Origin: a candidate division WOR-3 bacterium
GTDB taxonomy: Bacteria; Hydrothermota; Hydrothermia; Hydrothermales; Hydrothermaceae
NCBI GenBank assembly: GCA_039803745.1
Contig: JBDRZD010000005.1
Span: 1-34,802, forward strand
Reading direction: 5' to 3'
Length of the DNA stretch: 34,802 nt
A program made the translations under genes and the position numbers. Shown here piece after piece: positions 20,010 to 26,539 of this stretch (position 1 is the first letter of the stretch; each line of letters starts with the position of its first letter). The notes beneath the pieces are model-generated. The model made no database searches and had not been told where the DNA came from. It saw nothing but the letters and a program-made list of their open reading frames with translations.

Positions 20010-22067
20010 TTAAAATTTTATAAACTTGTTCAAATAAATTATAATTGGTGTAAAAACAAGAGATACTATTGCCATAAGTTTTAAAAGTATATTTAGAGAA
20101 GGTCCAGCAGTATCCTTAAATGGGTCTCCCACTGTATCACCTTCAACCGAAGCCTTATGCTCCTTTGAACCTTTTCCTCCTAAATTTCCTGCTTCAATCC
20201 ATTTTTTTGAATTATCCCATAATGCTCCTGAATTTGCCATAAAAAGCGCCATTGGAACCCCTGTAATAAGGGAACCTGCAATAAGACCACCAAGCGCGTT
20301 TGGTCCGAGAATTATTCCCACTATTAAAGGAGTTATAAATACAACAAGCCCTGGTATAAGGAGATTTTTTAATGCTCCCTTTGTTGTAATATCTACGCAT
20401 CTTGCATATTCGGGTTTTGCCTTCCCCTCCATTAATCCTTTTATTTCTTTAAACTGCCTTCTAACTTCTTCAACAACAAGTTTCGCAGTTCTTCCAACAG
20501 CCCTTATTGTTGAAGAGGAAAAGAAGAATGGTATCACACCACCTATGAAAAGACCTGCTGTAACTTTCGGATCAAGGATACTAAGATCAATTTTAATTCC
20601 AAGACTCTTTAAAGTCTGAGCATAAGCACTGAAAAGGGCAAGAGCAGTAAGCGCTGCCGAACCTATTGCAAAACCTTTACCTATCGCAGCAGTTGTATTT
20701 CCTGCTGCATCAAGGGAATCCGTTATTTTTCTTATATTTTCACCAAGATGAGCCATCTCTGCAATTCCTCCTGCATTATCCGCAATGGGTCCATAAGCAT
20801 CAACAGAAATTGTTATTCCTGCAGTAGCCAGCATACCAATTCCTGCAAGAGCTACTCCAAAAAATCCTGAAGAAAGAAAGGATATTATTATTGCAAATGC
20901 TATCAATATTACAGGAAGAACTGCACTTCTCATACCTATTGATATACCTGTAAGAATATTGGTTGCAACCCCAGTTGTTGAAGATTCTGCAACCTCTTTT
21001 AAAAATTTTTTATTTATTGTATAATACTCAGTGAAAATCCCTATTATCACACCCACAAAGATACCTGAAAAGATTGGCCAGAAATTCGTTATGTTTCCTT
21101 TGTATAAAAAATAAACAGTTAAAAAGGAAAAAATTACAAAAAATAAAGCAGAAAATAAAACTGAATTAAGAAGTGCTTTTGAGGGTTCTCCCTTTGCTGT
21201 TTTTATCAAAAATATACCCAAAATTGAAGAAATAATTCCGAGTGCAGGAGTAAATATTGAAAGAAGCATTCCTTCCATGCTTCCCATACTTCCTGCAATT
21301 ATAAGTCCAGAAATTATTGAACCTACAAAAGATTCATAGAGGTCAGCACCCATTCCTGCAACATCACCAACGTTATCCCCAACATTGTCCGCAATCACTG
21401 CAGGATTTCTTGGATCGTCTTCCGGAATCCCTGCTTCAACTTTACCAACTAAATCCGCACCAACATCTGCAGCCTTTGTATAAATTCCGCCTCCAACCCT
21501 TGCAAAAAGAGCAACAGTTGAAGCACCCATTGAAAAGCCAGCGAGTATAGAAGCAGCCTCCACTGCCTTTAATATAGGAGTTCCTTCTTTCGAAAGATTT
21601 GAAAATATCAGGAAAAGAAGAGAGATCCCTAAAACACCAAGAGAAACAATCATTATCCCCATCACAGAACCACCAAAAAATGCAAGGGAAAGTGCTTGAT
21701 TAAAACCTTTCTTTGCTGCCTGAGCGGTTCTTGTATTTGCTCGTGTAGAAATTTTCATTCCAAACCACGCTGAACCAAGAGAGAAAGAAGCACCGATTAC
21801 ATAAGAGATACAGGTTGCAAGGGCAAATTTAATTGATTTTGTTAAAAGGGATAAAAATAAAAGTATTATAACAAATATAACAAAGAAAAAAATTGTGATA
21901 AATTCTCTTTTCAGGAACGCCATCGCACCTTCATGAACTGCATCTGAAATTTTCATCATTTCCTCTGTTCCTGGATCCTGTCGCATAACATACCTTGCAA
22001 TAAGAATTGAATAAACAATTGAAAGCAAACTTATAAAAAGTGATACGAATATTAACACATCATTCAT
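20010..22067 (-). CDS. hppA: Membrane-bound K+-dependent, probably Na+-translocating pyrophosphatase
   Basis: [41 protein letters not shown] (Ala indicates K+ dependence), [17 protein letters not shown]. Start is ATG 22067 (GAGAGG upstream) or 22073. Confidence 0.95.
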
Positions 22068-22613
22068 GTTCATCCTCTCTAAAACTGTTTATAAAATTCA
22101 TTGCTTTATTTACTCCTTCATTAAAAAGCACCTTAACACCTTTTTTTAAAAAAGGGAAAAGAGTTTCAAATAAAAAATTTTTTTCCTCTTCTTTAAGCTG
22201 GGATAGAACATATTTCTTCAAAGGTTTTTCTCTTCCTATCCCTATTTTCAATCTCAGGAAATTTTCACTTTGAAGATAATAAATAATTGAAGAAATCCCC
22301 TTATGACCCCCTGCACCTCCCTTTATTTTCAATTTTGGCTTACCAAAAGGAAGAGCAGCATCATCATGAACCACTAAAATTTCTTCATTTTTTATCATAA
22401 ATTTTTTTTTAAATCATTTAATACTTTGCCACTTTCATTCATATATAAATTTGGTATTATAAGAAATCCATACTCTGTCTCTTTATAAAAAAAATCACCT
22501 TCCCCCGGTAAAAAATTGCTCTCACCAAGATAAAGAACAAAAAGTTTGCCTACATTATGTCTTGTAAACTCATAAATTTTTCCAGGATTCCCAAGCCCAA
22601 TTATATAAAGCAT
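22060..22613 (-). pseudogene. pth: Peptidyl-tRNA hydrolase split into two ORFs (22395..22613 and 22060..22398) at an A9 run
   Basis: 5' ORF has GLGNPG, TRHNVG and YMNESG; 3' ORF has VVHDD, GGAGGHKG and RLKIGIG. One extra A in the run at 22402-22410 restores a single frame. Conserved prs-rplY-pth order. Confidence 0.9.
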
Positions 22614-23265: not shown

Positions 23266-24201
23266 TTAAATGAATAAAGCACTAATACTTCTTTCCTCGT
23301 GAATTCTTTTGATTGCTTCAGCAATTAAACCTGAAACAGTTAAAATTTCTAATTTTCTCATCTTTTTATGTTCAGGAATTGGTATTGTGTCTGTAACTAT
23401 TATTCTATCAATTGGGCTATTTTCAAGCAAAGAAACAGCATCACCCGATAAAATTGCATGAGTTGCACATACCCATATTGCTTTCGCACCAAGTTCTTTA
23501 AGTTTTTGAGAAGCAAAATAAATTGTTCCACCAGTATCTATTATATCATCAACAATTATAATATTCTTATCCTCAACATTACCTATCACATGCATAACTT
23601 CTGACATATTTGGAGCAGGTCTTCTCTTGTCAACAACTGCAAGAGGTAAATCACCAAGTCTCTTTGCAAATGCTGTTGCCCTATTTGTTCCACCAACATC
23701 AGGAGAAACAATAGAAAAAAATCTTGCATCCAAAGGCCCAAGATATTCCTTAAACACGGGAAAGGCATAAATATTATCTAAAGGAATATCAAAGAATCCC
23801 TGGATCTGATCAGAATGAAGGTCAATCGTTACAACTCTATCAACCCCTGCTGTTTGAATCAGGTTTGCTATAAGTTTTGCAGAAATTGGAACCCTTGGCC
23901 TATCCTTTCTATCCTGCCTTGCATAACCGAAATAAGGAATAATTGCTGTTATTCTCTTTGCAGAGGCTCTTTTAGCAGCATCTATCAAAAGTAAAAGTTC
24001 AAGAAGATTTTCTGCTGGTGGATGTGTACTCTGTACTATAAATATATCGCATCCCCTTATATTTTCCTTTATCTGTATTCTTATTTCACCATCTTTAAAT
24101 CTTGACACTTCAAGAGCGCAAGGCTCTACGCCAAGTTTTACACATATATCCTCTTTTAATTTCCAGGAAGTAAGACCGGATAAAATTTTTATTTCGTTCA
24201 T
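23266..24201 (-). CDS. prs: Ribose-phosphate pyrophosphokinase
   Basis: FKDGE, PYFGYARQDRK, DLHSDQIQGFF, SPDVGG, VDDIIDTGGT. Confidence 0.97.
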   Translation of the reverse strand: MNEIKILSGLTSWKLKEDICVKLGVEPCALEVSRFKDGEIRIQIKENIRGCDIFIVQSTHPPAENLLELLLLIDAAKRASAKRITAIIPYFGYARQDRKDRPRVPISAKLIANLIQTAGVDRVVTIDLHSDQIQGFFDIPLDNIYAFPVFKEYLGPLDARFFSIVSPDVGGTNRATAFAKRLGDLPLAVVDKRRPAPNMSEVMHVIGNVEDKNIIIVDDIIDTGGTIYFASQKLKELGAKAIWVCATHAILSGDAVSLLENSPIDRIIVTDTIPIPEHKKMRKLEILTVSGLIAEAIKRIHEERSISALFI

Positions 24202-24686
24202 TTTAATAGCTCTTTAATTTTTTCTTCAAAAAACTCTTTATCTCTATATCCTATGATTTTTTCAACAATTTCACCCTTTTTATTTATTATAAAAGTAGTT
24301 GGTATTGCACTTATACCACCATAGGATTCAACAACCTCTCTATTTGCAACAAGTACAGGATAGTTTATTCCATTTTCCTCACAAAATGATTTGACCCTTT
24401 CAATTCCTTCCCTTGCAAAGGCAATTCCTATTATTAAAACTCCCTTATCTTCATAATCAGAATAAATTTCTATGAAATGGGGAATTTCGGCTCTGCAAGG
24501 TGGACACCATGTATCCCAGAAATCTATAATCACAACCTTATTCTTTATATGCTCGTAAAGATGAAATTTTTCACCATTTATTTCTTCTAAAACAAAATCA
24601 GGAGTTTTTTTTAATCTGGAAGTTTTACTATAACAGAATAAAAGGAGTAAAGATAAAAGAAAAGAAAATTTAAAATTAGTTTTCAT
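24198..24686 (-). CDS. TlpA/ResA-family thiol-disulfide oxidoreductase (exported)
   Basis: Signal-like N-terminus, DFWDTWCPPCRAEIP, AIPTTFIINKKG. Confidence 0.9.
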   Translation of the reverse strand: MKTNFKFSFLLSLLLLFCYSKTSRLKKTPDFVLEEINGEKFHLYEHIKNKVVIIDFWDTWCPPCRAEIPHFIEIYSDYEDKGVLIIGIAFAREGIERVKSFCEENGINYPVLVANREVVESYGGISAIPTTFIINKKGEIVEKIIGYRDKEFFEEKIKELLK

Positions 24687-24694
24687 CTTACCTC

Positions 24695-25552
24695 CTATAA
24701 AACATCTTTTAAAATATCTGCAATTTTTTCAAGGAAATTTTTGTCTCTTGTGGTAAAAGCAGATGGTGTCTCTGAGTCAATATCAATCTCTCCTTTTACT
24801 TCTCCATTTTTTATTATGGGTACAACTATTTCAGACTTTGTTTCTTCAAAACATGAAATATACCTTGGATCTTTCTTCACATCATTAACTATTATTGTAT
24901 TTTTCTCCTTTGCTGCTGCTCCACATATTCCCTTACCAATTGGTATAATTTTATGTTCTGTCTCCTTCTCCCCTTTCCATGGACCCAGAACAAGTTTGTT
25001 CTCTTTGATAAAATATATGCCAACCCAATCATAATGTTTGAAATTGTCATAAAGAAGACAAACTGTTTTTTCGAAAAGTTTATCAGGTTCTTTTTCCTTA
25101 GTCCATTTTATTTCTTTCAATATGCTTTCCATTCTAAGTTTTTCTTGGGAAAGATCAAACTCTTCTTCCCATGTGATTATAGAATGATAATAAACCTGGT
25201 CTCCTTCATCTATTCCTCTTGTAATCTCAGATATATGAACAGAAGTTGCTTTAAATTCCTCAAGAATATAATTAACTGCTTCCTCAGGATTTGCATGCTC
25301 CCCACATGTATATATATCTAAAGCTGCATATCCATATTCTGGCCATGTATGTATTGAAAGATGGGATTCTGAAATCACTATCACACCGGATACTCCATTT
25401 GGTGGAAACCTGTGAAATGAAACAGCCCAGACCTGAACATTTGCCTTTTCTGCGGCCTTGACAAGAATATGTTGAACTCTTTCAATATCCCCTATTATTT
25501 CTGAATTACAGCCAGATGCTTCTACTATATAATGTTCTCCAATTGTTCTCAT
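24695..25552 (-). CDS. speD: S-adenosylmethionine decarboxylase proenzyme (class 1B) fused to a GAF/fRMsr-like domain
   Basis: aa 1-135 carry GVSG...SESHLSIHTWPEYGYAALDIYTCG (pyruvoyl cleavage E62/S63); aa 141-285 carry DWVGIY, LGP, GKGICG, YISC, SEIVVP, IDIDS. Confidence 0.88.
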   Translation of the reverse strand: MRTIGEHYIVEASGCNSEIIGDIERVQHILVKAAEKANVQVWAVSFHRFPPNGVSGVIVISESHLSIHTWPEYGYAALDIYTCGEHANPEEAVNYILEEFKATSVHISEITRGIDEGDQVYYHSIITWEEEFDLSQEKLRMESILKEIKWTKEKEPDKLFEKTVCLLYDNFKHYDWVGIYFIKENKLVLGPWKGEKETEHKIIPIGKGICGAAAKEKNTIIVNDVKKDPRYISCFEETKSEIVVPIIKNGEVKGEIDIDSETPSAFTTRDKNFLEKIADILKDVL

Positions 25553-25577
25553 TTTTTATTCCTTTTTTTTGTTTTTA

Positions 25578-25607
25578 ATTTTAATATATCCTTATAGAAA
25601 TTTTCAA
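25578..25607 (-). promoter_or_regulatory. Sigma70-type promoter TTGAAA-N18-TAAAAT for the speD...pyrB operon
   Basis: -35 at 25607..25602 and -10 at 25583..25578. Confidence 0.62.
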
Positions 25608-25615
25608 ATATTTTA

Positions 25616-25645
25616 TTGAATTTTACATTAATTTTTTATTATAAT
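25616..25645 (+). promoter_or_regulatory. Sigma70-type promoter TTGAAT-N18-TATAAT, probably leaderless
   Basis: -35 at 25616-25621, -10 at 25640-25645, ATG at 25652 after 6 nt, no SD. Confidence 0.62.
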
Positions 25646-25651
25646 TTAAAA

Positions 25652-26539
25652 ATGAAAAAGATAATTTTAATAATAATACCTTTTTATCTTTTTTCAGGAA
25701 CCTACGATTATTTAAAGATACCTGCTTCTTCAAAGGAAAGTGCACTTTTAAATCTTTTAGGACTTTTTGAAAAATACCCTTCTGCACTTTTTGTAAACCC
25801 ATCAGGAATTTTTGAAGTTGAAAGAATGATTGAAGCAGGTTATGGAAATTATATAGTTGATATGCATCAAGGATATTTAACATTTCCAATTGGTAAATCT
25901 CCTACTTTCTGGATTTTGATTCGTTTTTTGCATCTCGGAAAATTCACAAAAACAGATACATTTGGAAATGAAATAGGAGAATATAATGGAGAAAATCTCT
26001 CTATAAGTTTTTGTTTTCCCATAACTCAAAAATATAAGATTGGCGGGAGTTTTGAATTACTTTATAATATTCTTGATAAGTATTCATCCTTAGGAACTGC
26101 TCTTTCTTTCGGATATAATTTTTATGAAAGAAAAGTTTTTAAGGATGCTTTATGGAGAAACTCTTTCACATTAAAGTATATTGGATTTGAAATAAAACCA
26201 TTTAATAAAGAAAGAAGCACATTTCCTTTAAAATTTACATATAGTAGTGGTTTAAAATTCAGCACTTTTGAAACAGGATTTTCCTTATTTTATATAATAA
26301 ATGAAGGAATAAATGGGGAAATATCTTATTTATATAGATGGGGAAAAAATTTAAGAATATCCATATCATATACAACTTATAATAGGGATACAAAAATAGG
26401 TGAAGGTATAAAAGAATTATTTTCAGGATTTTCAAGCGGGATGGGAATTGAAATAAAGAAAATAAATTTGTTTTACTCTTATACACCCTTTGGGGTTTTT
26501 GGAGATATCCATAGAATAGATATTTCTTATAAATTTTGA
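25652..26539 (+). CDS. PorV/PorQ-family outer-membrane beta-barrel protein
   Basis: MKKIIL signal peptide (start moved to ATG 25652), YLKIPASSK...SALFVNPSG, terminal YSYTPFGVFGDIHRIDISYKF. Confidence 0.7.
   Translation: MKKIILIIIPFYLFSGTYDYLKIPASSKESALLNLLGLFEKYPSALFVNPSGIFEVERMIEAGYGNYIVDMHQGYLTFPIGKSPTFWILIRFLHLGKFTKTDTFGNEIGEYNGENLSISFCFPITQKYKIGGSFELLYNILDKYSSLGTALSFGYNFYERKVFKDALWRNSFTLKYIGFEIKPFNKERSTFPLKFTYSSGLKFSTFETGFSLFYIINEGINGEISYLYRWGKNLRISISYTTYNRDTKIGEGIKELFSGFSSGMGIEIKKINLFYSYTPFGVFGDIHRIDISYKF

Follow-up and report, generated by a model that had tools for sequence, protein, structure and literature searches.

The locus described here raises the question of whether an S-adenosylmethionine (SAM) decarboxylase and a GAF domain have truly become one protein and, if so, what the appended domain does there. 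It lies on contig JBDRZD010000005.1 of a candidate division WOR-3 bacterium (NCBI GenBank assembly GCA_039803745.1, family Hydrothermaceae), of which positions 1 to 34,802 were analyzed as one stretch of DNA, hereafter called the window. On the minus strand, positions 24695..25552 of the window form a single open reading frame (ORF) of 285 amino acids (aa) that joins a SAM decarboxylase (AdoMetDC, SpeD), the enzyme of the committed step diverting SAM to polyamines, to a GAF domain of the free methionine-R-sulfoxide reductase (fRMsr) type. We found that this fusion is genuine, in frame, and vertically inherited within one order. With moderate confidence, we propose that its product would be a bifunctional AdoMetDC/fRMsr, the C-terminal domain of which would also serve the SpeD half without reductase chemistry, probably in a structural manner. 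The features concerned are as follows.

24695..25552, minus strand: SpeD-GAF fusion ORF, 285 aa, with its stop codon at 24695-24697; the frame is stop-free in relatives.
25160..25552, minus strand: class 1b pyruvoyl AdoMetDC domain, residues 1-131, assigned by Pfam, NCBIfam, an alignment with 1tlu, and Foldseek.
25364..25369, minus strand: codons of E62-S63, the predicted self-cleavage site, aligned with S63 of Thermotoga maritima AdoMetDC.
25103..25159, minus strand: linker, residues 132-150, a predicted long helix according to the AlphaFold2 (AF2) model and the family alignment.
25139..25143, minus strand: run of five A at the junction (five T on the plus strand), without any indel in the Logan contigs X9, X11, and X12.
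24698..25102, minus strand: fRMsr-type (type II, two-Cys) GAF domain, residues 151-285, assigned by a phmmer search of the PDB, Foldseek, and Pfam.
24923..24925, minus strand: codon of C210 (in GICG), equivalent to Cys60 of Thermoplasma fRMsr by alignment and kept in 9 of 9 family clusters.
24851..24853, minus strand: codon of C234 (in YISC), by alignment the counterpart of Cys84, the catalytic cysteine of Thermoplasma fRMsr, and kept in 9 of 9 family clusters.

The first-pass annotation of this DNA had reported a single in-frame ORF of 285 aa, which we confirmed on the minus strand, and a series of motifs, all of which were found where it had placed them. In the SpeD half, these are E62-S63, HTWPE (residues 68-72), and TCG (82-84); in the GAF half, they are WVGIY (176-180), LGP (189-191), GICG with C210 (208-211), YISC with C234 (231-234), SEIVVP (240-245), and IDIDS (256-260).

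The same annotation had cautioned that the fusion might be due to a sequencing error. The junction reads ...GAAAAACTTAGAATG... with the A5 run at 25139-25143, and one extra A in this run would give a TAG and then an ATG, so that a separate speD gene and a GAF gene starting at Met141 could have been joined by a missing A; moreover, pth in the same window is out of frame at a homopolymer. We nevertheless regard an artefact as practically excluded. Three Logan contigs cover the junction, namely, X9 (24153-25600) and X12 (24738-25535), both without a single difference, and X11 (25041-25553), with one substitution and no indel. These are contigs, not raw reads; they come from three different studies, none of which was flagged as a possible source of the window. 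Among 41 related genomes, 11 belong to the order of the window (5 to its own family and 6 to a sister family) and 30 to the remainder of the class. Within the window's family, a full-length, stop-free frame was present in 4 of the 5 genomes, the three relatives being 92, 88, and 78% identical, while the fifth genome (G002, 75% complete) gave no SpeD match at all. All six genomes of the sister family encode SpeD and a shorter C-terminal domain in one frame. In a search of a collection of 5.8 billion proteins, the 120 best listed matches comprised 9 clusters of 285 to 299 aa with both PF02675 and GAF (77 to 99% identity; NCBI, JGI, ENA, and Logan), 7 clusters of 254 to 261 aa covering 99 to 100% of the query, and 104 proteins of 156 to 182 aa consisting of SpeD alone. 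Residue 141, the would-be start methionine of a GAF gene, is an arginine in 2 of the 9 family clusters and a glutamine in all 7 sister clusters. Separate speD and GAF genes in close relatives, which the first-pass annotation had named as the finding that would speak against a fusion, were not seen; the frame is continuous in three other family genomes, six sister genomes, and 16 clusters. The frameshift in pth is itself conserved in four genomes. The suspicion of a missing A at the junction is therefore refuted.

The N-terminal half has the characteristics of a class 1b AdoMetDC. Residues 7-113 matched Pfam AdoMet_dc (PF02675) with an E value of 3.3e-42 and 143.6 bits (cut-off, 25), and the NCBIfam equivalog TIGR03330 was matched with 149.4 bits versus a cut-off of 75.65. 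Residues 1-114 aligned without gaps with T. maritima AdoMetDC (1tlu; E value, 1.8e-31), with E62-S63, H68, and C83 in register with S63, H68, and C83 of that enzyme, which are the processing and catalytic residues of class 1b SpeD according to PMC10407285. A Foldseek comparison of the AF2 model with 1tlu gave a TMt of 0.87 and a root mean square deviation of 0.9. Unfused SpeDs from the same bacterial class share 75 to 81% identity with the domain, and the ratio of nonsynonymous to synonymous substitution rates (dN/dS) in pairwise Nei-Gojobori comparisons within the window's family was 0.021 to 0.050.

The first-pass annotation had assigned residues 1-135 to SpeD; all residues for processing and catalysis are indeed in place, but the end of the domain had to be moved to approximately residue 131. 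Residues 114-131 form a conserved extension with the pattern EGDxxxxHSxxTWEE, which here reads ...HSIITWEEE up to residue 131. Unfused SpeDs of 156 to 170 aa from other phyla carry the same extension (RG..EGD....HS..TWEE), followed by short basic tails. Since the extension is common to unfused SpeDs, the SpeD module corresponds to residues 1-131, with a boundary at about 131/135, after which the helical linker begins. We propose that SpeD would cleave itself between E62 and S63, with S63 converted to the pyruvoyl group; the products would be a beta chain (residues 1-62) and a pyruvoyl alpha chain (residues 63-285) that would carry the GAF domain on the conserved helical linker. T. maritima AdoMetDC (1tlu, 1vr7, 3iwb) has the same fold and the same catalytic positions, and the dimer predicted for the fusion forms via the same domain. 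However, the T. maritima protein stands alone and has 130 aa, whereas in the fusion the predicted alpha chain runs on through the extension (residues 114-131) and a helical linker into a GAF domain of 135 residues.

We then considered which substrate the SpeD half is likely to use. Neofunctionalization of class 1b SpeD homologs is widespread and hard to tell from sequence, as described in PMC10407285, and the half could be a neofunctionalized pyruvoyl arginine or ornithine decarboxylase. We consider this very unlikely. The host genome (G000, 93.5% complete) encodes no other SpeD homolog, while two aminopropyltransferases need decarboxylated SAM (dcSAM); these are encoded by two Spermine_synth genes on contigs C25 (L013/L016) and C28 (L014), one of which adjoins a gene of the agmatinase family, an arrangement reminiscent of the aminopropylagmatine route known from thermophiles. 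Besides the agmatinase, the genome encodes an arginine decarboxylase of its own, a pyruvoyl enzyme of the PvlArgDC type, the TIGR03330 score is twice the cut-off, and the identity to unfused SpeDs is high, as given above. A sole SpeD, two dcSAM-consuming enzymes, and an independent arginine decarboxylase are most simply explained by the SpeD half being a true SAM decarboxylase, whose product, dcSAM, would be used by both aminopropyltransferases encoded there.

The C-terminal half proved to be closest to fRMsr. It matched Pfam GAF (PF01590; residues 156-280; E value, 9.8e-13; 49.2 bits) and GAF_2 (PF13185; E value, 3.1e-11; 44.1 bits), the joint span being residues 156-281. The C-terminal 145 residues matched 11 distinct PDB sequences in phmmer, and the best ten were solved fRMsrs or close uncharacterized homologs. 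They included, with E values from 4e-27 to 6e-18, the Staphylococcus aureus enzyme (3ksg/3ksf; 4.1e-27), Ta0848 of Thermoplasma acidophilum (4mmn; 3.8e-26), and the yeast (1f5m), Escherichia coli YebR (1vhm), and Neisseria meningitidis (3mmh) proteins. In agreement with this, the top Foldseek hit of the GAF half was 4mmn (TMt, 0.86), and the top 11 were all fRMsr structures, with cyclic nucleotide monophosphate (cNMP)-binding and regulator GAF domains following at lower ranks. C210 aligned with Cys60 and C234 with Cys84 of the Thermoplasma enzyme, a type II fRMsr in which both cysteines are critical, Cys84 is the nucleophile, and, unlike in the bacterial and yeast enzymes, no intrachain disulfide is formed (PMC6211008). 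No cysteine occurs at the site of the additional S. aureus fRMsr cysteine ("...PAC...") in the alignment of solved enzymes; in the bacterial and yeast type I enzymes, this extra residue is presumably the resolving cysteine. Its absence makes the GAF half a type II domain, like Ta0848 and the free-standing homologs of the class. The first-pass description of a two-Cys fRMsr-type GAF domain lacking the first cysteine of MsrC was hence borne out, the best matches in sequence and fold being fRMsrs and the only counterparts present being those of Cys60 and Cys84.

E241, D257, and D259 are also present and are identical in the aligned 3ksg and 4mmn; we take the glutamate of SEIVVP and the Asp-x-Asp of IDIDS to bind the amino-acid moiety of the substrate. 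C210, C234, E241, D257, and D259 were all kept in 9 of 9 family clusters, and pairwise dN/dS of the GAF half within the family was 0.086 to 0.306 (Nei-Gojobori). As the only fRMsr homolog in the host genome, with every known critical residue under purifying selection, the GAF half is most simply still a reductase. It would probably reduce free methionine-R-sulfoxide (Met-R-SO) in a thioredoxin-dependent manner; the host genome encodes both thioredoxin (119.4 bits) and thioredoxin reductase (397.8 bits). Ta0848 shares the two cysteines and the fold, and neither protein has the extra cysteine, but Ta0848 is free-standing (149-residue PDB chain), whereas the fRMsr-type domain described here makes up the C-terminal half of a decarboxylase rather than a stand-alone, single-domain protein. 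Neither MsrA nor MsrB was found in the two genomes of the genus that were tested (93% complete each), which leaves the fused GAF domain as the only recognizable Msr-type domain there. The family's other genus has both, as do 2 of the 3 sister-family genomes tested; in two sister-family genomes the MsrA and MsrB domains lie in one ORF of 377 to 381 aa, and in G004 the two are adjacent (relatives concerned: G001, G004, G005, G007, and G008).

We also modeled the fusion. The AF2 model had a mean predicted local distance difference test (pLDDT) score of 82.8 and showed a linker helix (residues 132-154) leading into the GAF core. Within the linker, K138, L139, E142, and L145 are invariant in the alignment of both families. 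A homodimer was predicted with an ipSAE of 0.67, versus 0.00 for the best control; the runs agreed in at least 90% of contacts, and the partner pLDDT was at least 87. Among proteins solved as pairs, 20 of 30 attain the mark used for dimers, compared with 1 of 23 among those solved as single chains. All of the confident interface falls within residues 2-129, including residues 119-129 of the extension, and the homodimer pass may reflect likeness to the solved T. maritima dimer. An interface without GAF residues is silent on GAF-GAF or GAF-SpeD contacts.

The sister family provided the most informative comparison. Its proteins align end to end with that of the window, except for a 32-column gap, i.e., a deletion of 32 residues, that removes GICG...YISC with both cysteines; in addition, IDIDS is replaced, so that D257 and D259 are lost, while E241 is kept. 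L167, F171, G178, E241, I242, P245, F266, D270, F273, and K276 are invariant across the sister family too. In its AF2 model, this mini-GAF forms a GAF core reduced to two helices and four strands plus a C-terminal helix (block pLDDT, 77 to 89). Pairwise Nei-Gojobori dN/dS was 0.071 to 0.118 in the four pairs with a dS below 1.2, and 12 of the 15 pairs gave values of 0.071 to 0.146, of which those with a dS above 1.4 are unreliable. The mini-GAF is thus under purifying selection although it cannot act as a cysteine reductase. Because the sister family has kept the fusion under selection after loss of the cysteines, the pocket loop, and most of the pocket, the domain would have a role for SpeD that requires neither reductase chemistry nor binding of methionine or its sulfoxide. 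No protein name is on record for the fusion proteins of the relatives, and the source labels on two of the sister-family proteins read "candidate division WOR-3" and "Candidatus Hydrothermales."

Regarding the genomic context, two further features flank the fusion gene.

24198..24686, minus strand: TlpA/ResA-like thioredoxin-fold lipoprotein (WCPPC), assigned by Pfam AhpC-TSA/Redoxin, 8 nt downstream of speD-GAF.
25578..25607, minus strand: promoter-like hexamers TTGAAA-18-TAAAAT upstream of the speD-GAF start codon, a weak match at chance level.

At all 10 loci from the order (including L002-L010), the gene directly downstream of speD-GAF is the tlpA-like one, 8 nt away in the window and overlapping in the sister family, whereas it is absent at two unfused speD loci of another family. 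The other neighbors of speD-GAF differ between the two families. In the NCBIfam ResA subfamily, the protein scored 112.5 bits, below the cut-off of 170 bits. The first-pass impression that this thioredoxin-fold protein is exported fits our data, as an N-terminal signal peptide was found in 10 of 10 orthologs and a lipobox-like cysteine in 9 of 10. The gene is probably cotranscribed with speD-GAF, and its product is probably exported. We considered the TlpA-like protein as the reductant of the GAF domain and rejected it, since the signal peptides place it outside the cytoplasm, where it cannot serve a cytoplasmic reductase. Despite the conserved pairing, a functional tie between this protein and a decarboxylase or reductase in the cytoplasm is not obvious.

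On the other side of speD-GAF, a divergent ORF of 307 aa (25616-26539 of the window, plus strand) has a hydrophobic N terminus and no Pfam match; it adjoins speD-GAF in four genomes of the family (61 to 84% identity) and not in the sister family. At gathering thresholds, Rfam detected only four tRNAs in the whole window, none of them near speD-GAF, and no riboswitch. A promoter scan of this AT-rich DNA returned 16 sites versus 16.2 expected from shuffled sequences, and a terminator scan returned none versus 1.9 expected. In a single RNA run (X15), contigs covered prs and tlpA only (23299-23534 and 24209-24395) and none covered speD-GAF. Seven of the eight studies that hold the stretch or part of it are hot-spring metagenomes.

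In the window, pth (minus strand, 22060-22613) is split into 22395-22613 and 22060-22398, with a change of frame at an A9 run (22402-22410). The sequence at the split reads T TTA AAA AAA AAT TT, and an extra A or a -1 shift would restore full-length Pth. In the first-pass annotation, pth had been described as one A short in a homopolymer: the gene is indeed out of frame, but an error in the sequence does not seem to be the cause, as the same A9 run and the same shift were found in 4 of 4 family genomes examined for pth, representing two genera. Contigs of three independent studies showed no indel at the run. Out-of-frame stops closely bracket it in three of the four genomes, the 0-frame stop of G003 lying further downstream, and pth is intact in a sister-family genome. 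Judging from these sequences, the split is probably a case of conserved transcriptional slippage or programmed -1 frameshifting in an essential gene of a free-living thermophile; a literature search returned no obvious report of such a pth frameshift among the titles listed.

To place the fusion in a wider context, we looked for SpeD with a GAF domain elsewhere. As the first-pass annotation had proposed to check, the architecture recurs in related genomes, in full in the window's family and in reduced form in the sister family. A HMMER search covered all 1.84 billion representatives at 50% identity; among the best 150 matches, SpeD followed by GAF was seen in a single representative, P0016, to which this clade belongs. 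Of these 150, 23 multidomain or long matches were picked and scanned with Pfam, and none of the 23 combined SpeD with GAF; they included four SpeD-SpeD and two SpeD-SpeE proteins (P0131, P0148, P0150, P0224, P0211, and P0233) and two SpeDs with N-terminal extensions. SpeD ORFs that matched past residue 135 in three other families (G014, G020, and G017) were considered as wider occurrences and discarded, being unfused with short tails. Of the 30 genomes of the class outside the order, 6 were found to encode a free-standing fRMsr, versus none of the 11 within it. These type II fRMsr-like proteins (G040, G032, G028, G030, G021, and G035) are 40 to 58% identical to residues 141-285 and have the same two-Cys pattern, but they are encoded by separate genes of about 135 to 151 codons that, at all five loci examined, have neither speD nor tlpA as a neighbor. 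An origin by read-through of a speD-fRMsr gene pair was therefore rejected, as no such adjacency exists in the five loci and speD lies on other contigs. The homologous linker and the shared tlpA-like neighbor argue for one fusion event, which probably took place in the ancestor of one order of this WOR-3-type lineage.

The known SpeD fusions comprise SpeD-SpeD(C) double-pyruvoyl proteins and SpeD-SpeE, according to PMC10407285. They also start with a bona fide class 1b SpeD, but their partners are polyamine enzymes. In the same source, a Victivallis SpeD fusion keeps a degraded second domain, a parallel to the mini-GAF of the sister family. The word "gaf" is absent from the available text of this fusion survey, supplements excluded, and a full-text literature search returned no paper in which a SpeD-GAF or SpeD-fRMsr protein is described. 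Each family is well known by itself; what seems to be new is their combination. The small bacterial class 1b AdoMetDCs are not known to carry a regulatory or accessory domain, and our literature and protein searches returned no earlier example. Fusions of fRMsr-type GAF domains to other partners were seen as well: a Cys_Met_Meta_PP pyridoxal phosphate (PLP) enzyme (P0219, 550 aa), FAA_hydrolase (P0215, 444 aa), Peripla_BP_2 (P0199, 402 aa), HD_5 (P0147), DUF4396 (P0162), a second GAF domain (P0244), and unassigned N-terminal regions. Both cysteines are kept in all five aligned fused or tandem fRMsr-type GAF domains, and it seems that metabolic enzymes have repeatedly been extended by the fRMsr fold.

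What, then, does the appended domain do? According to our preferred reading, the GAF half would still reduce free Met-R-SO, and the appended domain would also be structural, stabilizing the alpha chain or the oligomer. Several observations weigh against this. The genus lacks MsrA and MsrB, so that the relevance of methionine oxidation in its niche is questionable. The orientation of the two domains in the model is not confident (predicted template modeling score, 0.54; pLDDT below 50 for residues 118-135), and the dimer interface contains no GAF residues and hence gives no positive sign of a structural role. The dN/dS values of the sister family are largely saturated, with no value for 3 of 15 pairs and a dS above 1.4 for most others. 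Finally, the sister family shows that reductase chemistry is dispensable, and the intact cysteines of the window's protein could serve redox sensing instead. A simpler account is that the two genes were joined by chance and that the GAF domain acts only as an fRMsr without any effect on SpeD, splitting having become costly; the mini-GAF would then be conserved only because its loss would destabilize the polypeptide. That both halves look complete and self-sufficient, that the predicted dimer needs SpeD alone, and that fRMsr domains fuse promiscuously all fit this account. It is, however, less easily reconciled with a dN/dS of 0.07 to 0.12 in a catalytically dead remnant in six genomes, which is strong for a mere leftover, or with the positions of the free-standing fRMsr genes, which leave no simple read-through between neighbors. 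We consider such a passenger possible but rather unlikely; in that case, the finding would extend the list of SpeD fusions only modestly.

Sensing of small molecules is typical of GAF domains, and the GAF profile match lies C-terminal to an enzyme domain, as in regulatory GAF proteins. The domain might thus be a built-in sensor of methionine, Met-sulfoxide, or thiol redox state that gates the self-processing or turnover of AdoMetDC, either by binding methionine or Met-R-SO or through oxidation of C210/C234, so that SAM would enter polyamine synthesis only if permitted by the methionine pool or the redox state. This corresponds to the coupling that the first-pass annotation had suggested. The cNMP-binding and regulator GAF domains lower in the Foldseek list are in line with this idea, and so are the linker and first GAF helices, which are more conserved than a passive tether needs, and the intact-Cys fRMsr-type GAF domains on other metabolic enzymes (P0219, P0215, and P0199). 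Yet the sister family has remained fused without the pocket loop, the cysteines, and the two aspartates, so that control by a ligand is dispensable there, and the models give no confident contact between GAF and SpeD. We therefore regard a sensor as doubtful. If it were true, a small-molecule regulatory domain would have been seen for the first time on a prokaryotic AdoMetDC, the state of the methionine pool would be linked directly to the commitment of SAM to polyamines in a thermophile, and the sister family would have retained only the structural half of the switch.

Coming back to a bifunctional AdoMetDC/fRMsr with a C-terminal domain that also serves SpeD, the two families together represent a natural evolutionary control, in which the reductase chemistry has been deleted from one family and the domain retained. 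This pair makes a noncatalytic role of the GAF/fRMsr fold for a pyruvoyl enzyme testable. Together with other metabolic enzymes that carry such a domain, among them a Cys/Met PLP enzyme, the fusion strengthens the case that two-Cys fRMsr domains are modules in repeated use.

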